From: Escherichia phage vB_EcoM-ZQ3
Sequence record: MW630116.1
Length of the DNA: 64,000 nucleotides
Direction: 5' to 3' (one strand)
Under the pieces are notes generated by a model that did no database searches, had not been told where the DNA came from, and worked only from the letters and a program-made list of their open reading frames with translations. Numbering within the stretch: position 1 is the stretch's first letter; each line of letters opens with the position of its first letter. Below, piece by piece: positions 2,620 through 56,994 of this stretch. The translations under genes and the position numbers were made by a program.

Positions 2620-3720
2620 ATGAAAGTTATGTTTATCCCATCTCGTGCAGTCCCATTTAATCCTGACCGTGTACAAGGTGGTCTTGAAGCAGTACATTTA
2701 AATGTGTTGAAATATCTTGTGTCCATCGGTGCTGATATTGATTATATCGGTTTTGATAATGACACATTTGGTGATTGGAAGGTTAATCATCATCCTGTTG
2801 GTCATCTGACTAAATTCAGTCTAGGTATGAGTTATACTATGGCTCGTAAGATTGTTGAACTAGCCGGCATCCATGAATACGATTTTGTTGTTACTATGGA
2901 AACGACTAAACTAACCGTTCAGGCAATTAAAGACGCAGGTCTCTCTAAAGTTCATAAGAATTTTATGGCAACACCATTTGAACCGGTATCTCGTGGCATT
3001 GTTCAAATTTGGGACCAGACTATTCAAATTCATAAGAATGGTGGTAAGAGTTATGCTCCTACTAAAGCCTTCCGTGAATTTGAACGCAAATATTGTTATA
3101 TGACTTCAGGTCTGACTGACAAAATTGATTACGATTATTGGCGAGCAAATCCGTTGTTTGAAGCCGAAGATTATCCGGTTATTTGTTTGAATGAGAAACC
3201 TGAAGTTCTTCCGGCGACTGATCTGATTATTAGTGCACAACGTTATGACACTAAAATGCGTCGTACTGATGTTGCTCTTGAAGCGATTAAAGCACTAGGC
3301 GAAAATGGTGTAGGATACTGTCCTAGTAAATGGGCACCACCGGCTAAGTATCCTGTTATTATTGATGCTCCACACAGTGAAATCATGGAACGTCTTAAAA
3401 CAGCTAAAGCACTTATCAATACGTGTCCTGACACGGGTACGGTAGAGAATAGTTCTATTGAAGCCATCTCTAAAGGTGTCCCTGTGATTCAGTTAGTTTT
3501 TAAGGATTATCCGCACGCGACATTCGAATATGACCCAGATACTGTGCGTGTAGAAATTGATTCCTCTACTCCTAAGAAAGAAGTAGTTGCGCTTTACACA
3601 AAAGCGGTATTAGAATTCACTGACACATACGAAGCTCGAGTTAAACGTGCTGAAGCAGTATGGAAGAAGTATAACCGAGATGCGGTTGTTGCGATGTGGG
3701 ATAAAATCTTCACAGCGTAA
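2620..3720 (+). CDS. hypothetical protein (366 aa) with weak glycosyltransferase (GT-B) like C-terminal features
   Basis: Long uninterrupted ORF with RBS; C-terminal segment TGTVENSSIEAISKGVPVI resembles the sugar-donor binding region of GT-B enzymes; occupies the slot where T4 has mobA/rIIA.1; assignment is tentative. Confidence 0.6.
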   Translation: MKVMFIPSRAVPFNPDRVQGGLEAVHLNVLKYLVSIGADIDYIGFDNDTFGDWKVNHHPVGHLTKFSLGMSYTMARKIVELAGIHEYDFVVTMETTKLTVQAIKDAGLSKVHKNFMATPFEPVSRGIVQIWDQTIQIHKNGGKSYAPTKAFREFERKYCYMTSGLTDKIDYDYWRANPLFEAEDYPVICLNEKPEVLPATDLIISAQRYDTKMRRTDVALEAIKALGENGVGYCPSKWAPPAKYPVIIDAPHSEIMERLKTAKALINTCPDTGTVENSSIEAISKGVPVIQLVFKDYPHATFEYDPDTVRVEIDSSTPKKEVVALYTKAVLEFTDTYEARVKRAEAVWKKYNRDAVVAMWDKIFTA

Positions 3721-8544: not shown

Positions 8545-8602
8545 GTTTACAACAAGGTAGGATTATGGTATAGTAGTCCTACTGAAACATGAGGAACACA
8601 AA
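8545..8602 (+). promoter_or_regulatory. early promoter cassette with 9-bp dyad (gtaggatta / tagtcctac) around the -10
   Basis: gtttacaacaaggtaggattatggtatagtagtcctactgaaacatgaggaacacaaaATG. Confidence 0.55.
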
Positions 8603-9669: not shown

Positions 9670-10995
9670 ATGCAATTGAATTCTCGTAATCTAAAAAGTA
9701 TTATTGATAACGAAGCCTTAGCATATGCGATGTACACCGTTGAAAACCGTGCAATCCCAAACATGATTGATGGATTTAAGCCGGTTCAACGTTTTGTGGT
9801 TCATCGTGCGTTAGATTTGGCTCGTGGTAATAAAGAAAAATTTCATAAACTTGCGTCAATTGCAGGAGGTGTTGCAGATTTAGGTTATCACCATGGTGAA
9901 TCTTCTGCACAAGATGCAGGTGCATTGATGGCTAACACATGGAACAACAACTATCCACTGTTAGATGGCCAAGGCAACTTTGGTTCTCGAACAGTCCAAA
10001 AAGCTGCAGCATCTCGTTATATTTTTGCTCGTGTAAGTAAAAATTTCTATAACGTATATAAAGATACTGAATATGCTCCAGCTCATGAAGATAAAGAACA
10101 CATTCCACCAAAATTCTATCTTCCTATTATTCCGACAGTTCTTTTGAATGGCGTCTCTGGTATTGCAACCGGTTACGCAACAAATATTCTGCCTCATAGT
10201 TTTAAATCAGTCAAAAAGGCTGTATTACAAGCTCTTCAAGGTAAAAATGTCACTAAGCCAAAAGTTGAATTCCCGGAATTCCGTGGTGAAGTACATGAAG
10301 TTGATGGGCGTTATGAGATTCACGGAACATATAAGTTCACATCTCGCACTCAAATGCAGATAACTGAAATCCCATATAAATTCGACCGTGAAACGTATGT
10401 GAGTAAGGTTCTTGACCCGTTGGAAGACAAAGGTCTAATCTCATGGGAAGATGATTGTGGTGAACACGGCTTTGGGTTTAAGGTGAAGTTCCGTAAAGAG
10501 TACTCGCTTCCTGATGATGAAGAGCTACGTCATGAAAAAATCATGAAAGATTTTAGTCTCATCGAACGTCGTTCACAAAACATCACAGTGATTAATGAAA
10601 AGGGTAAATTAGCAGTCTACGATAACGTAGTGGACTTAATCAAAGATTTTGTTGAAGTCCGTAAGACTTACGTTCAGAAACGTATTGACAACAAAATCCT
10701 TGAATCTGAAAAAGCATTTAAACTGGCTTTTGCTAAGGCACACTTCATCAAAAAAGTTATCAGTGGTGAAATTGTGATTCAGGGCAAGACTCGTAAAGCT
10801 TTGACTGAAGAGCTAGCACAAATCGAAATGTATAAAGAACATGTCGATAAACTGGTAGGTCTTAACATCTTCCATATCACTTCCGACGAAGCACGTAAAC
10901 TAGCAGAAGAAGCTAAAGCTAAGAAAGAAGAAAATGAGTATTGGAAGTCTACTGATGTTGTGACAGAGTACACTAAAGACTTGGAGGCACTTTGA
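9670..10995 (+). CDS. 52: DNA topoisomerase II medium subunit (GyrA-like)
   Basis: 441-aa ORF (T4 gp52 is about 442 aa); N-terminus ...AYAMYTVENRAIPNMIDGFKPVQRF is typical of the type II topoisomerase A subunit. Confidence 0.9.
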   Translation: MQLNSRNLKSIIDNEALAYAMYTVENRAIPNMIDGFKPVQRFVVHRALDLARGNKEKFHKLASIAGGVADLGYHHGESSAQDAGALMANTWNNNYPLLDGQGNFGSRTVQKAAASRYIFARVSKNFYNVYKDTEYAPAHEDKEHIPPKFYLPIIPTVLLNGVSGIATGYATNILPHSFKSVKKAVLQALQGKNVTKPKVEFPEFRGEVHEVDGRYEIHGTYKFTSRTQMQITEIPYKFDRETYVSKVLDPLEDKGLISWEDDCGEHGFGFKVKFRKEYSLPDDEELRHEKIMKDFSLIERRSQNITVINEKGKLAVYDNVVDLIKDFVEVRKTYVQKRIDNKILESEKAFKLAFAKAHFIKKVISGEIVIQGKTRKALTEELAQIEMYKEHVDKLVGLNIFHITSDEARKLAEEAKAKKEENEYWKSTDVVTEYTKDLEAL

Positions 10996-11071
10996 GTGCC
11001 ATAGCCTTAGGATTTCTCGGTGCAATAGCTGCACTAGTGATTTGGCTGTATTGGTTGGACAAACATGATTA

Positions 11072-11092
11072 GGGAGCTTCGGCTCCCTTTTG
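11072..11092 (+). terminator. rho-independent terminator (gggagcttcggctccc + T-run)
   Basis: 6-bp stem with UUCG loop followed by ttttgtgcattttt. Confidence 0.65.
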
Positions 11093-11112
11093 TGCATTTT
11101 TCTCACAAAACA

Positions 11113-11180
11113 GTTTACACGTGCTTCAAACATGATATTATAGACCTATCAAAACAAAACAACCAAATTGGAGAAATAAA
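11113..11180 (+). promoter_or_regulatory. early/middle promoter-leader cassette (GTTTAC, TGCTTCA MotA-box-like, -10, RBS), copy 1
   Basis: gtttacacgtgcttcaaacatgatattatagacctatcaaaacaaaacaaccaaattggagaaataaaATGtctaaa; near-identical to copy at 11435..11500. Confidence 0.55.
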
Positions 11181-11396
11181 ATGTCTAAAATGAAATTAAC
11201 CCAAAACACAACTACTCGTTTTGGTAAAGTTAAACCTGGTATGAATGCTCCCCGTAAAGCACTTGTTGAAGAATTAAATTTCTTAGAAGTTGAAATCAAT
11301 TCTTTAGTGGTTCGCGGTTCAAATGGACATCATTTAGAAAAGCTTCGTTCTAAAAAGGCAAAACTTATTGGCCTTATTAAAGAAATGAGTTTGTAA
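11181..11396 (+). CDS. hypothetical protein (71 aa)
   Basis: ORF track; begins MSK from the duplicated cassette; followed by hairpin gggcttttggaaaaagagccc. Confidence 0.5.
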   Translation: MSKMKLTQNTTTRFGKVKPGMNAPRKALVEELNFLEVEINSLVVRGSNGHHLEKLRSKKAKLIGLIKEMSL

Positions 11397-11434
11397 ATTT
11401 TACCAGGGCTTTTGGAAAAAGAGCCCAAAATAAA

Positions 11435-11500
11435 GTTTACTTTTGCTTCAAACATGATATTATAGACCTATCAAAACAAATACTAATTTGGAGAAATAAA
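11435..11500 (+). promoter_or_regulatory. early/middle promoter-leader cassette, copy 2 (upstream of motA)
   Basis: gtttacttttgcttcaaacatgatattatagacctatcaaaacaaatactaatttggagaaataaaATGtctaaa. Confidence 0.55.
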
Positions 11501-12133
11501 ATGTCTAAAGTTACTTACATCATCAAAGCTTCTGAAAACGTTCTGAATGAAAAAACTGCTGCAATAATGGTTTATATCATTAAGAACAACTTCACCACTG
11601 CTGCCAATGTCCGTGAAGCTCTGGAAGCTGAATACAATGCATCAGTTGTTAACTCTAACATTGGTGTATTGATTAAGAAAGGTTTAGTCGAAAAATCTGG
11701 TGATGGACTTATAGCAACAGGCGAAGCAATGGATATTATCCAAAAAGCTGCAGACCTCTTTGCCCAAGAAAATGCTCCAGAACTTCTTCAGAAACGTAAC
11801 ACTAGAAAAGCACGTGGAGTTACTCCCGAAATGCATGAATTAGCAAACTTTGTTTTTGAAAATATTAAAGATAAAGTTGAAGTTAAAGAAATTGGTGAAA
11901 ACCGTAGTAACTTGGAAGTTCGATTTGCAAAACGAGTTCTAGGTATTCGTCAGATCGAAATTCGTCGAGATGGTTGTCTTAGAATATTTGCATACAACAT
12001 GTCAGAAACTGAATCAAAGCTGTTTACTTCTCTTGAAAATGATGTTAAGATTAAGATCGGTGGTAAATATACTTACATTGACTTCCCTAATGTGTCCAAA
12101 GAAATCATTACCCTTGTAACTAACGTACTGTGA
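11501..12133 (+). CDS. motA: MotA middle-transcription activator
   Basis: 210-aa ORF starting MSKVTYIIKAS...VVNSNIGVLIKKGLVEKSGDGLI...QENAPELL, matching T4 MotA as I recall it (T4 MotA 211 aa). Confidence 0.9.
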   Translation: MSKVTYIIKASENVLNEKTAAIMVYIIKNNFTTAANVREALEAEYNASVVNSNIGVLIKKGLVEKSGDGLIATGEAMDIIQKAADLFAQENAPELLQKRNTRKARGVTPEMHELANFVFENIKDKVEVKEIGENRSNLEVRFAKRVLGIRQIEIRRDGCLRIFAYNMSETESKLFTSLENDVKIKIGGKYTYIDFPNVSKEIITLVTNVL

Positions 12134-12143
12134 GGAATACATA

Positions 12144-12488
12144 ATGAATAAGCTGAATATTATTAACGAACTTCGTAAATGTGCAGAACCTACTCAGGAA
12201 GGATGGGATATTTGGTACCACGGGGCTTATCTTGGAACTATAGTTAAAGTTAAAGCTGGGTTATATTTAATTATTCGCGAAAATTCTGAATTCCCTAATG
12301 GAGTAGCTCCTGGCGGTATACGTAAAAACTTTATGGCAGCTATCAGTTCATTTGTTGATGCAGCTTACGAAATCTATAAAGAAGATTATAAAGAATATCA
12401 GCAGTCACAACCGGTTATTCGTTCGATTGGTGTAAATAAACAAGCACAAAAATCTATTTGGCAACGTATTAAGGAATGGTTTAAATGA
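12144..12488 (+). CDS. hypothetical protein (114 aa)
   Basis: ORF track; tight spacing after motA. Confidence 0.5.
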
Positions 12489-20543: not shown

Positions 20544-23500
20544 TTATTCAATCCACTCGAATTTAACAGATTTATTCACAGGATCTGGAATAATGCGGAC
20601 ATTACCAATCCTTAAGAAATCCCTTATTGTCAAGTTTCCGATTGTTGCATTATCAGAAGGTAAAGCGCCAATATCAGAAGGTTGAGGAGGGTTTCCACCA
20701 TCAAATACCTGAACAAAACTCGACCAAGAATTTTTAGTTTTCTGCCATGTACGTGTCCAACGGGTTGTACGTGCTTCTGGAGTTGTTGGATAAGTAATCC
20801 AATCTTGGTAAAGCGAATCAAGTGTGTTACCAAACTGAGTCAGTGTACCAGGAGATTTAACTTCTTCGCCACGTTCTAAGTATGGAAGTCCAGTCACTTC
20901 ATTAGTTTTTTCAACCATTTTAAAATAACCCGGGAACTGGTTATAAGTGGCTGAATCGTTAATATCTATTGACCAGAATCCGACTGTATCAGCAGTAGGA
21001 GCACGAGTGTATAAATCAGCAGTTTTAGAACCATGAGAACGAATTCTCGAGTTAACAGTTAAACCACCTGAATTTATAGTAGCACCTTTGGCAATGATTA
21101 AGCCTTCACCAATCGTTACTTGGCCGGATGCATTATTAATAGCTAAAGGACGTAATCCATTAAATCCGCCAGTCTGATCACCTGATGCAGTAAGCATAAA
21201 ATAGGTATTAACAGCATCATTACGAATAAAGAATCCGTAATTACCACTAATTGCTCTGAATGCGTTTGCACTATAGGTTATAAATTCACCCTGTGCTGTC
21301 ACCGAACGTCCAAATGTTGCCGCACCATTAGCATTCAATGTTCCGGATGCATTAACATTAATCGGCCGAACTGTACCGTTGATGCTGAAAGTAATATTAC
21401 CAAGGTTATCCCGTTGTGAATAAAAGTGGTTAGATGTTTCATCACCAACTTCAAATATCGTAGCACGAGATGTATCAGAACCGCCGGCGAATTGGTTACC
21501 CCATACACGGATATTCATCGCCTGAGCAGGGTTGTTTCCAGTTTGTGGACCTTTTTCAAATATTAAGCGAGTTGAAGCACCTGTATTAGAAATAGTTAAT
21601 GTACTATTAGCAGATACCGAACCACCAAACGTAGCCGTACTAGATGATACAAGAGGGGCACTCAGATTCGTTTGTTGGGTTAAGGTTAGTGAACCATTAA
21701 CCGTCTGTGCAATGTCCCTACGAATGAACTGAGATGAATCTAGGCCATCTAATAAATTTGCGTCAGCAGCTTTTGCTTTTAATGGCAAGTAATTTGCCAA
21801 TACACGGTTTAATTCATACGGTGATACTGCATAGCTATTTTTCTCGTATAGCTCTAAGTTTTGTGTAGAACCGACTGTATCATTACCAACGAATGTAATA
21901 GAACCGGATGAAGTTTTAACGAATCCGCGAATTGCTGTAGTAGCAGCCCATGTTGGTTCACTCTGCACAATCCATTTTAAATTCTTAGGAGATACAGCAG
22001 TGTTCGCTGACGTTCCAGTCACAGTTTCAGACTGGGTTGCAACCTTGATTACACCTTCAGACGTTTCAGTGGACTTAGTCCCTAAAAGCTTTTTAGGAGT
22101 AATAAGAACATCATCTAAAGTTCCTGCATTAGATTCTGCCTGGGTCGCTACGCGAAGTGTACCACGTTGTGTTTCATTTGCTTTAGAAATATCAAGAGTA
22201 TAATGGTTCCACAAGGTTCCTTCTTCAATAAGTCCGGAATCAGAATTAACACTGGTACGGTCAGAAGAATCAAAATGAGTTTTAATTTTCAGTGGAGTTG
22301 AGATACGAGTATCATCAGTTCCAGTATCAAATTCAACTTGCGTAGCAATTTCGGCTATGCCGGATAATCCTTCCGTAGCTTTCCTATCATTTAACGTCTT
22401 AGGCGTTACTGCACGTGTATAATCAGTCCCAGCATTAGTTTCTGTTTGCGTAGCAATTTCAATTAAACCAATACGTCCATCAGTAGAAGTTTTCTTATGT
22501 AGTGTTTCAGGAGTTACTACAGCGTGAGAATAACCTGCTTGTGATTGACCAGCAATTACTTCACTATCAACAGCTAAAATTACTGCACCTTGTTGAGCAT
22601 ACGTTGCTTTATATTGGTCAAGGGCTTTAGGAGAAATAGTTAAATTATTTACGGTTTTATTATAAACGTTAGTGCCTGCGGCCCCACGAGTTTCGGCAGG
22701 AGTAGCAGAAGTAGTTGATACATATTTAACTATACCAGATAGTGTTTCAGAACCCTGACGTGCCTGCAATTTCTTAGGTGTAATAATCGTTGTGTCATCA
22801 AGACCAGCATCGGTTTCAGTCTGAGTAGCAATTTCGGCAAGACCGCGACGAGTTTCAGTTGCTGTACGCTCATTTAGTTTTTTAGGCGTAACAATAGTAT
22901 CGTCCACAAATGATGCTGTGGAATTCTGGTTAACTTGTGCTGTTGTAGCAATTTTAGCGATACCACGTCGAGCTTCAGTTGCTGTACGATTTGCCAACGT
23001 TTCAGGAGTAATAGCAACTTCTTTAGCTGGAGTATTCTCTAAATCAACATTTGCTTGCGCTTGAGTAGCAAGAGCAATAACACCTAAACGAGCTCGTGTA
23101 GCATCAGTTCCAGCATCAACACGTTCTACCGTAGGGACGTTTTGTTGAACAACCCAATAACGTGTACCAGCAACGGTGTCTTCGATATACGATAATTCTA
23201 ATACAGGAACATATGAAGTAGTGCCATTGAATTCTAGTTCAGTAACAGAGACCCATTGAGCATCAGGTGGATATTCAGAACGTTTAGGGAACTGAAGCAA
23301 CGCAACAGAAGAAGCAATTGTATCACCTTCGGCAGCTTTAATTTTTACTGTTTGGCCTTTACGCATGTAGTTCATTGAAATTTTAACAGTGTCACCACTC
23401 AAAATTCCAGTAGGCAGCGTAAGATTAATAGTTCCGGTTGTAGCGTTATTTGTGCCAAAAATAAGAACTTCTTCATTTGGACGAATATTTGAATCAGCAC

Positions 23501-43756: not shown

Positions 43757-43827
43757 GTTTACTCTCCTGTAGGATGTGTTACTATAGACTTGTACCACCT
43801 AATCAATAAAAACAACCGGAGAATAAA
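43757..43827 (+). promoter_or_regulatory. early promoter cassette (GTTTAC ... tactatag ... ggagaataaaATG)
   Basis: gtttactctcctgtaggatgtgttactatagacttgtaccacctaatcaataaaaacaaccggagaataaaATG. Confidence 0.5.
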
Positions 43828-44199
43828 ATGAACACTATCAATTTAAATGCTACAATTAAATGCCGTGACCATGATGGATATAAATCTCAAGTTGTTAACG
43901 AGTTACAGTGGATGGTTCGTTCAGTTCAAGGTGATGTGGTTTATTGTACAACTCCTGATGGCCCTTCAGACGATTTTTGTTATCATATCGAAATTGAAAA
44001 CTTTTTCACTGGTGAAATTTACCGTCTGAATTCTACAGTTTATGGTTGTATTCGTTCTAAAACTTACGAAGATGAAGAGACTGGTTACTCTGAAGATGTT
44101 GTATGGTACGAAAATGCCAGAAATCGTGCAGAGTCATTAATCGAGAAGATTAAAGCAAAAGGTGTTATTGATTCAGCTAAGTGGACAAAAATCAAATAA
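43828..44199 (+). CDS. hypothetical protein (123 aa)
   Basis: ORF track; promoter cassette upstream. Confidence 0.55.
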   Translation: MNTINLNATIKCRDHDGYKSQVVNELQWMVRSVQGDVVYCTTPDGPSDDFCYHIEIENFFTGEIYRLNSTVYGCIRSKTYEDEETGYSEDVVWYENARNRAESLIEKIKAKGVIDSAKWTKIK

Positions 44200-44203
44200 A
44201 AAT

Positions 44204-44273
44204 GTTTACTTTGGTACAGGTTATGTTATTATAGACCTGTACCAACAAACAACTTAAACATCTGGAGAATAAA
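44204..44273 (+). promoter_or_regulatory. early promoter cassette with perfect 8-bp dyad (ggtacagg / cctgtacc)
   Basis: gtttactttggtacaggttatgttattatagacctgtaccaacaaacaacttaaacatctggagaataaaATG. Confidence 0.6.
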
Positions 44274-44639
44274 ATGAACTACACCAACTTCGAACGCAAA
44301 TATGTTTCTAACGGTATCGCTGGTTCTATCGATATGGTTTGTTTGTGGAAGCATAAAAATGGTTCAGTATGTGAAATTGAGCAGTGCATGGCTCCTAATT
44401 ATGTTTATATGCGATTTGAAAATGGCATCACGGTTTCAATCACGATGGAAGGTTCCAACTTCAAAATTGCATTAGATGACGATTTCCGTCAACGTGATTT
44501 AGGTACTCATCCTTGCTGGAACGGTGTTAATCGTAAACTTCTGGTTAAAACTTGGATTCGTCATATCCTGAGTAACCGAGCTAAACCTGAACACCTGGAA
44601 GCAATCTTTGATGTAGTTCTGAACGAATTCGACATCTAA
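44274..44639 (+). CDS. hypothetical protein (121 aa)
   Basis: ORF track. Confidence 0.55.
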   Translation: MNYTNFERKYVSNGIAGSIDMVCLWKHKNGSVCEIEQCMAPNYVYMRFENGITVSITMEGSNFKIALDDDFRQRDLGTHPCWNGVNRKLLVKTWIRHILSNRAKPEHLEAIFDVVLNEFDI

Positions 44640-55874: not shown

Positions 55875-56994
55875 TTTTAACCTTAACTGGGTTAACAGGT
55901 TCTAACACCATTGAGTTGGTAAACATGTACAGATGAGTTTGTGAGTTGTTATTTGATAACTCATGAATAACTTCATCCACGTAAAATTCGGATTTGAATT
56001 GGTTCTTTTGGTCAACAAATATAATTTTAGTAGCAGGCGTTATGTTAAAATTACCTGTAGTAGTGCATTTAGCATATCCGTCGTATTGAGCCATTGTCTG
56101 AAGACGACTTGCTTCTTCAAATCCATTACGATAGGTCATTTCAGAATATCCACCTGATCTTGACACAAGAATAGCATTATCACCATCACCTGTAACAATA
56201 ACCGGAATAGATGTATCTAAAAATGAATGAGCGAATATCGTGGCGTTTTTAATAGGGTCTCTTGTAAATTGGTTAGCTTTAGTCATCCAGGTGAAATCCC
56301 ATACTAATGGATACTCAAGCTCTTGAATATACTGACCTACAGTATTTGGCTCGCCTACAACCATCTTAATGCCTTCCTGACCAATAAGAGTATCATAGTC
56401 AATCATGTTTACGCCTAAAATATCTTGCCATACGAATACGAACTTATCACTCGCTGTAGCAAGTCCTAATTCTCTGACATATGCCAAATAATCATCAAAT
56501 GTGCTTGTCCAAGGAATATCAGGAACATAAGCATTAATAGTGTTTATTGGCGGAGTAATTAACGTACGGTCTTTATATATGACACCTAACATTTCACGTA
56601 TAGATTCTCCTGCGTCTGAGAAGAATGGTCGCCCAAATTTAAGGTTCTCTATAGAATGTATTGTTCCAAGCTCAATTGCAATAATATTGTCACCTTTTGA
56701 GTCCACAGACACAGAATAATGTCTACATCCGTAAATTCGAGTTCTAACTTGGAGAGGTGTGTTTGAATTTGAAACAGAGATTTGGACTATCTGTCTACCA
56801 TCCATTTTAGTGTGGATGTTTTTAGTGTCATAAAATTGAAGAATCCCTTCATTTCTTCCATATAGCGAATCTCGCATGGTTAAAGTTGTTATTGTTGCTG
56901 CGAGTTCAACATATCTATTTTCTTGCCAAGCCGAATAATCTTGATATAATTTAACGCTTAAGTTAGGATATCCTGGACGTTGGAATACTGTCAT
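55822..56994 (-). CDS. 27: gp27 baseplate hub subunit
   Basis: 390-aa ORF (T4 gp27 391 aa); synteny. Confidence 0.82.

Follow-up and report, generated by a model that had tools for sequence, protein, structure and literature searches.

In Escherichia phage vB_EcoM-ZQ3, the gene of the middle-mode transcription activator MotA and a small open reading frame (ORF) of 71 amino acids (aa) lying upstream of it are each preceded by almost the same stretch of DNA, comprising a promoter, a leader, a Shine-Dalgarno (SD) sequence and the first three codons; this raises the question of how such a repeat came about and what keeps its two copies alike. The sequence analyzed here, called the window, is a stretch of 64,000 nucleotides (nt) from record MW630116.1, and it belongs to a Mosigvirus, an RB69-like T-even phage. 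Cassettes made of a stem-loop, an early promoter and an SD/ATG segment, named PeSL, have been described as flanking small unknown ORFs (Arbiol et al. 2010, PMC2839356; Comeau et al. 2014, PMC4122927). The sequence anatomy of the locus and its variation among related phages make it very probable that both segments derive from one T4-type early cassette of the PeSL kind, repeated in tandem, and that recombination inserts, deletes and swaps the small ORF upstream of motA.

A repeat search followed by MAFFT alignment revealed two direct repeats on the + strand: copy A, 86 nt long, covers 11104-11189, and copy B, 84 nt long, covers 11426-11509. Their global identity is 85% over 86 nt. The repeat period is 322 nt on the left side and 320 nt on the right side, since the leaders differ by an indel of 2 nt. 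Two blocks are perfectly conserved, one of 37 nt (11122-11158 = 11444-11480, TGCTTCAAACATGATATTATAGACCTATCAAAACAAA) and one of 22 nt (11168-11189 = 11488-11509, TTGGAGAAATAAAATGTCTAAA); the second takes in the codons ATG TCT AAA, with which both the 71-aa ORF, at 11181, and motA, at 11501, begin (MSK in both proteins). The near-identical segments that the initial annotation had placed at 11121-11189 and 11441-11509, with their common MSK start, are therefore real, and their limits can be refined to those given above. Since the early promoters of T-even phages share a long consensus, all the 15 early-promoter cassettes found on the + strand of the window were compared pairwise. The remaining 104 pairs display a mean identity of 59% ± 4.4%, with a maximum of 77%, and have exact runs of at most 18 nt in common, versus 85% and 37 nt for the A/B pair; the two copies are therefore homologous beyond the family resemblance. 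Moreover, a 34-nt core pattern, searched with up to three mismatches, matches in the 64 kb at copies A and B only, and no match is expected (100 shuffles). The repeat is not an assembly artefact, since more than 70 phage genomes, in independent records, have the same arrangement, with the ORF between the cassettes.

Both copies have the same layout: a hairpin is followed by an A-rich stretch, a -35 element GTTTAC, a 17-nt spacer ending in TGa, a -10 element TATTAT, a leader of about 33 nt, a GGAG and, after 7 nt, ATG TCT AAA. In cassette A the A-rich, UP-like stretch is at 11104-11112, the -35 element at 11113-11118, a TGCTTCA motif at 11122-11128, the TG at 11133-11134, the -10 element at 11136-11141 and the predicted start at about 11148, while the GGAG of the SD is at 11170-11173 and the first codons are at 11181-11189. 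The corresponding positions in cassette B are 11426-11434 (A-rich stretch), 11435-11440 (-35), 11444-11450 (TGCTTCA), 11458-11463 (-10), about 11470 (predicted start), 11490-11493 (GGAG) and 11501-11509 (ATG TCT AAA). The cassettes match the sigma-70 consensus at 10 of 12 positions, in addition to the TG, and contain an A-tract, the -35 GTTTAC, TGn and a TAtAAT-type -10 at sigma-70 spacing; early promoters of T4 and RB69 are likewise composed of UP, -35, TGn and -10 elements (PMC2988021, PMC1524935). Written as a PeSL, the promoter part reads cacaaaaca or caaaataaa, then TTTACA or TTTACT, N16 and TATTAT with its TG. The motA promoters and leaders of RB69, JS98, Marfa and Kc304 are orthologues of cassette B, and in T4 motA is an early gene with an early promoter (PMC2988021). 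The leaders of both copies do not fold better than shuffled sequence, and an Rfam scan of 10900-11600 gave nothing relevant, the sole match being a chance microRNA (E = 0.89); thus, the repeated leader is no known RNA element.

Hairpins are found upstream of both promoters, ending 25 and 9 nt before the respective -35 elements, within flanks that are unrelated, i.e. the terminator with cacaaaaca for copy A versus stem-loop 2 with aaaataaa for copy B. Stem-loop 1 (11071-11095, + strand; GGGAGC-UUCG-GCUCCC, then UUUUGUG; -12.9 kcal/mol, z = -2.8) has its hairpin proper, with the UUCG loop, at 11071-11088; the SA79RD record lists it as a rho-independent terminator, and it is conserved in RB69 and T4. 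By its sequence it is an intrinsic-terminator-type hairpin, the predicted end of the transcription of gene 52, which lies upstream. Stem-loop 2 (11406-11426, + strand; GGGCUUUU-GGAAA-AAGAGCCC; -12.2 kcal/mol, z = -2.9) has no U-run, the next letters being AAAAUAAA, and is probably a weak terminator at most. No allele without an ORF has it, and it is absent from RB69; in JS98 it has the form GAGCUCUU-GAAA-AAGAGCUC, with compensatory changes with respect to the pair GGGCUUUU/AAGAGCCC of the window.

Comparison with the motA regions of related phages revealed that the ORF and one cassette are present or absent together, as a 320-bp unit. Bases 10900-12200 of the window are 99.0% identical to Escherichia phage HX01 and at least 95% identical to more than 150 further records. 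In RB69, the gap between gene 52 and motA measures 185 bp, versus 505 bp in the window, and the difference is exactly one repeat unit of 320 bp; the single RB69 cassette consists of the upstream part and spacer of copy A joined to the leader of copy B. About half of the ~155 Mosigvirus-level records align in two pieces and span ~981 bp, versus 1301 bp, and the 71-aa ORF is found at 88% identity or more in 76 records. Presence and absence are patchy, since carriers and non-carriers overlap in the identity of their flanks (96.5-99% with the ORF versus 96.1-98.2% without it). The junctions of the empty alleles also differ: that of RB69 falls inside the 37-nt block, whereas L011, L014 and many isolates have an A-type leader joined to motA, with the junction inside the 22-nt block from the SD to ATGTCTAAA, and in L020, a Dhakavirus contig, motA is preceded by an A-type SD. 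The alleles with an A-type leader on motA are described here in qualitative terms, as gapped BLAST lets other alleles cover the whole query; likewise, the 12 loci obtained from an exact-pattern cassette scan of IMG/VR served for defining alleles and not frequencies.

The site is also occupied by other ORFs. JS98 and VR5, both Dhakavirus, have an orthologue of the 71-aa ORF at the same site. An unrelated ORF of 75 aa (phrog_10955, a family found in 168 records from several genera) lies between the same cassettes in MN04 and L019 (Dhakavirus) and in L012, L013 and L016 (Tequatrovirus-like); in L013 the left copy is a T4-type motA promoter and the right copy is of the Dhakavirus type. In L012 (IMGVR_UViG_2974787500) the left cassette is degraded, with the gene 52-side terminator fused into the promoter spacer and the -35 element lost. 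IME341 has an ORF of 73 aa between gene 52 and motA, and in IME08 (L021, HM071924, 600-1300) three tandem cassettes are placed to drive a homologue of the 71-aa ORF, a 73-aa ORF and motA, respectively. In Klebsiella phage Marfa, a 30-aa ORF lies between related cassettes. Relatives of the 73-aa ORF (63-66% identity) were noted at a quite different genome position in the Mosigvirus phages ST0, PNJ-6, NicPhage and others, suggesting that this family moves between loci. The annotation of IME08 omits the 73-aa ORF and makes the motA coding sequence (CDS) 75 nt too long. The cassette itself was also observed elsewhere: the Tequatrovirus UFV13 (L022, NC_031103) contains at 400-490, in an unrelated locus, a cassette about 85% like copy B, which lies upstream of a 60-aa ORF beside spackle, ends in ATGTCTAAAGTA (MSKV...) and has TGTTTTA at the position of the TGCTTCA motif. 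The promoter-leader-start module is thus dispersed among loci and genera.

Within each genome, the two copies share substitutions that distinguish them from the copies of other genomes. TGCTTC and TATTAT are found in both copies of the window, TGCTTT and TACTAT in both copies of JS98, TTATGCTTT in both copies of VR5 and AAACGTGTTATTAT in P1 and P2 of IME08; in SA79RD the spacer of copy A has changed to the B type (TTTT). PHB12 (MK524178, ~56117-56175) carries the 71-aa ORF and has an A-type leader on both genes; since motA too has the A-type leader, the leaders of this phage have been fully homogenised. These genome-specific variants, common to the copies of one genome, indicate gene conversion at the sequence level. 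The first codons point to the direction of one such transfer. MotA begins with MSK in every genus examined (T4, JS98, Marfa, Kc304), whereas the Dhakavirus orthologues of the 71-aa ORF begin with MNK and have their own, different SD, which indicates that the SD and the MSK start of the ORF in the window were copied from motA by a conversion or crossover tract. The proposal of the initial annotation that the ORF had been given the early promoter, leader, SD and first three codons of motA is thus borne out. Overall, the near-identity of the copies appears best explained by repeated recombination and gene conversion, together with constraint on the promoter.

The 71-aa ORF (11181-11396, + strand) corresponds to PHROGs family phrog_6200 (4e-40), a family of unknown function that is seen in 93 phage records; together with the two cassettes, it occurs in more than 70 Mosigvirus records and in 17 Dhakavirus-level records. 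Between the window and JS98 its nucleotide identity is 71%, close to that of motA (71.6%), with a ratio of nonsynonymous to synonymous substitutions (dN/dS) of 0.18 and a synonymous divergence (dS) of 1.29. By these sequence measures it is a real gene under purifying selection, and the arrangement is old rather than recent, because the ORF is as diverged as motA between genera and its dN/dS is low. Only a sub-threshold match was obtained in Pfam, and a search of 5.8 billion proteins returned eight clusters, all of close relatives. In the AlphaFold2 model (predicted local distance difference test, pLDDT, 76), a disordered basic N-terminal tail is followed by two helices, 23-44 and 50-70; as modelled, the protein is a generic alpha-helical hairpin, with no match in the PDB at E <= 0.001. 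Two metagenomic clusters, P0005 and P0008, contain 51-aa forms of the protein (98% identity, 72% coverage), which reflect either a gene call that starts at the internal Met21 or a disrupted 5' end in the contigs.

Other explanations of the repeat have to be weighed against shuffling of the ORF between tandem PeSL cassettes. The early promoters of the window have GTTTAC, TGn, TAyTAT and a start region 'ag.cctatcaac' in common, and a similar cassette occurs at the unrelated UFV13 locus; the two copies might therefore be independent early promoters, alike only via the long T-even consensus. However, the identity of the A/B pair exceeds the mean of the remaining 104 pairs by about 6 standard deviations, its exact run is 37 nt long versus 18 nt or less in the others, and the indel observed in relatives is exactly one repeat unit with its junctions inside the repeats, so that independence appears extremely unlikely. 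The degree of identity, with its two perfect blocks that include three codons, would also be accounted for by a recent tandem duplication in the window genome, which set the promoter, leader and start of motA before a newly acquired ORF. This is very unlikely as well, since the same ORF with two cassettes occurs in the Mosigvirus and Dhakavirus-level records mentioned above, the ORF has diverged between the genera as far as motA has, and copies A and B have nothing in common in their upstream flanks; that the Dhakavirus copies are recent imports from Mosigvirus is excluded by the nucleotide identity of 71%. Of the recent duplication or recombination initially suggested, homology via recombination stands, but a recent date does not, given that the ORF and both cassettes are found in Dhakavirus, diverged like motA.

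The TGCTTCA motif raises the further possibility that MotA acts on the cassettes, either activating them as middle promoters or repressing them from the spacer, and thus autoregulates motA and co-regulates the ORF. Indeed, TTTGCTTCA of copy B fully matches the consensus (a/t)(a/t)TGCTT(t/c)a (PMC2988021), and the longer form (a/t)(a/t)(a/t)TGCTTtA is found in copy B (TTTTGCTTCA), while copy A (ACGTGCTTCA) keeps the core only. The motA cassettes of Mosigvirus, Dhakavirus and Marfavirus all retain TGCTT(C/T)A, and in T4 (L004, NC_000866, ~3150-3170, - strand) the spacer of the motA promoter, AACCAAAGCATACTGTGG, has TATGCTTTG on the bottom strand, an inverted MotA-box-like sequence that may be a coincidence. 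In addition, the way in which T4 turns off its early promoters is only partly understood (PMC3014915, PMC2988021), and motA mutants overproduce several early products (PMC2988021). However, functional MotA boxes are 12±1 bp from the -10 element (PMC2988021), with GCTT at -30 to -27 (PMC1524935), whereas here TGCTTCA ends 7 bp before the -10 and GCTT occupies -25 to -22, a displacement of about half a helical turn. No alternative -10 (TAnnnT) was found 12±1 bp downstream of TGCTTCA, where the letters are ATAGAC/TAGACC/AGACCT, and the 11 correctly spaced TGCTTYA-N11-13-TANNNT sites of the window do not include either cassette. A full GTTTAC stands 3 nt upstream of the motif, while middle promoters are without such a -35. 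The core is not conserved in homologous cassettes, being TGCATTA in Kc304 and TGTTTTA in UFV13, and T4 has no top-strand box; the whole cassette is conserved, so that conservation of the box alone says little. Furthermore, MotA alone binds DNA weakly (PMC2988021), and TGCTTYA has 67 occurrences in the window. Activation or repression by MotA through this motif is thus improbable, and nothing in the sequence evidence points to repression from the spacer. The initial annotation had correctly noticed GTTTAC and TGCTTCA in each copy; as a MotA signal they do not hold, since GTTTAC is the T4-type early -35 and the box is mis-spaced. Of the early/middle control proposed for the ORF and motA, the early promoter stands and the middle one, for want of a -10 at 12±1 bp, does not, and the autoregulation of motA is unsupported. 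A broader proposal, which may be put forward as no better than a long shot, is that the gap between gene 52 and motA is a dedicated landing pad, at which T-even phages of several genera capture and exchange small early genes to have them co-expressed with motA, and that the spacer TGCTT(C/T)A is a MotA operator shutting off both motA and the captured gene as MotA builds up; if true, this would explain concretely how some of the T4 early promoter shut-off, so far unaccounted for, comes about.

As a separate observation, the 67 TGCTTYA occurrences compare with 25 expected over the whole window, and the 11 sites with correct spacing are all on the + strand (1.7 expected); they are candidate MotA middle promoters, for example those at 22179, 25323, 42391, 58816 and 63967.

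Returning to the tandem PeSL cassettes, we infer from the sequence promoter activity, read-through, RegB cleavage and a recombination pathway, which would combine as follows. Both copies, as strong early promoters, would be fired by the host sigma-70 RNA polymerase immediately after infection. The 71-aa ORF and motA would thereby form two early units, which the terminator hairpin at 11071-11095 would shield from transcription of gene 52. Transcripts from promoter A would probably run on into motA, because stem-loop 2 has no U-run. Both mRNAs, which carry GGAG and an A-rich site, are likely candidates for cleavage by RegB: the T4 motA mRNA is cut in its SD by this enzyme (PMC2988021; Uzan et al. 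1990 as reviewed there), strong RegB sites have the form GGAGRAYARAA (PMC3014915), and GGAGAAATAAA in the window matches 9 of these 11 positions within an unstructured leader. At the DNA level, where the population data lend support, the direct repeats spaced by 320 bp would be a substrate for the very active homologous recombination of the phage. A crossover between the copies would delete the ORF or free a small circle, and the reverse reaction would insert an ORF cassette; exchange with other phages would substitute the ORF, while non-reciprocal exchange would keep the copies near-identical and, in the Mosigvirus lineage, would have brought the SD and three codons of motA onto the ORF. General recombination is favored over a site-specific enzyme because the junctions are scattered along the homology.

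Some points weigh against this picture. The promoter function is deduced from the consensus and from orthology with T4; stem-loop 2 is devoid of the U-run expected of the effective PeSL terminators described in RB49; and the distance from TTTACW to TAYWAT is 16 nt, versus 17 nt in the PST/T4 PeSL consensus. Moreover, strong selection on promoter and leader alone could account for part of the identity between copies A and B, and the allele data do not tell insertion from deletion in each event.

The genes around the repeat follow the order gene 52, 26-aa ORF, 71-aa ORF, motA and arn.4-like genes, all on the + strand. Gene 52 (9670-10995) is an ORF of 441 aa for the medium subunit of topoisomerase II, annotated as gp52 in HX01, RB69 and T4, and provides the conserved upstream flank. 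The tiny hydrophobic 26-aa ORF (10992-11072) overlaps the gene 52 stop codon, is an annotated CDS in HX01 and holds the position of T4 motA.1. The motA gene (11501-12133) was recognized by the Pfam domains MotA_activ (1.8e-40) and MotCF (3.2e-8) and is annotated as such in the relatives.

Elsewhere in the window, a second tandem pair of cassettes was observed at 43757-44280, with -35 elements at 43757 and 44204, 77% identity and a common SD/start, GGAGAATAAAATGAAC; it flanks a 123-aa ORF (43828-44199) and precedes a 121-aa ORF (44274-44639), and judging from its sequence it is probably another PeSL pair. A subset of the early promoters, including those at 8545, 37980, 40102, 44204 and 51106, displays an inverted repeat around the -10 element, in which the start of the transcribed sequence pairs with the spacer; the one at 44204 extends over 11 bp, GGTACAGGT...ACCTGTACC. 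The longest repeat averages 4.6 for a promoter's own spacer and start versus 3.67 in cross-pair controls, and repeats of at least 6 bp are found in 3 of the 15 promoters versus 4.3% of the controls; in the motA cassettes, an inverted repeat bracketing the -10 was looked for and is absent.

The locus provides a clean natural example of PeSL shuffling, in which small unknown ORFs are exchanged beside a core regulatory gene. It is an ordinary feature of T4-like phages, and represents a known kind of mobile cassette at a further site. What is observed in public genomes is a set of many states, i.e. empty alleles with at least two types of junction, three unrelated ORFs and a two-ORF array, spanning at least Mosigvirus, Dhakavirus and Tequatrovirus. 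The case also suggests that recombination and conversion between regulatory repeats can enter reading frames and rewrite their first codons. In practical terms, it accounts for a common presence/absence difference among therapeutic Mosigvirus isolates and flags annotation errors at this locus; the knowledge of MotA regulation is unchanged by it.

Among known systems, the early promoter of T4 motA has the same position, downstream of the gene 52/motA.1 terminator, and the same elements, namely GTTTAC, TGn, a TAyTAT -10, a GGAG SD that is A-rich on its 3' side, and MSK as the first residues. It differs in being present in one copy, with an 18-nt spacer of other sequence and no top-strand TGCTT, and T4 has no ORF between motA.1 and motA; however, some Tequatrovirus relatives of T4 carry the 75-aa ORF and a second promoter of the Dhakavirus type. 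MotA-dependent middle promoters resemble the cassettes in having the TGCTT(c/t)A core and a good -10 accompanied by TGn, but the spacing of 7 bp and the strong -35 place the cassettes of the window outside this class. Integron-like cassette arrays offer an analogy only: in both cases interchangeable small ORFs from a common pool occupy a single site, where none, one or two of them are present. The motA locus differs in that it has neither an integrase nor attC/attI sites, each cassette has its own promoter, and the junctions occur at various points of the homology, consistent with general homologous recombination.

The closest system is the PeSL. Neither of the two papers describing it mentions the motA locus (PMC2839356, PMC4122927), and a literature search gave no description of this cassette arrangement there. 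Unlike the published cases, the window site lies between the core genes 52 and motA, so that the right cassette is the promoter of the master regulator of the middle mode; its copies are unusually alike, with homology reaching three codons into both frames; stem-loop 2 has no U-run; and the spacer is 16 nt instead of 17. The organization is otherwise that of a PeSL, with a stem-loop just upstream, an AT-rich stretch, a sigma-70-like promoter of the T4/PST type (TTTACW...TAYWAT), an SD and an ATG. As in PeSLs, whose recombination leads to indels, replacements and mini-circles (PMC2839356, PMC4122927), tandem copies surround small ORFs, and the flanked ORFs are inserted, deleted or replaced among close relatives, with the junctions within the cassette. 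The junctions include some between the -10 and the SD and some between the SD and the ATG, as in the published mini-circle junctions, and the degraded cassette of L012 resembles the 'half PeSLs' of Comeau et al. 2014.

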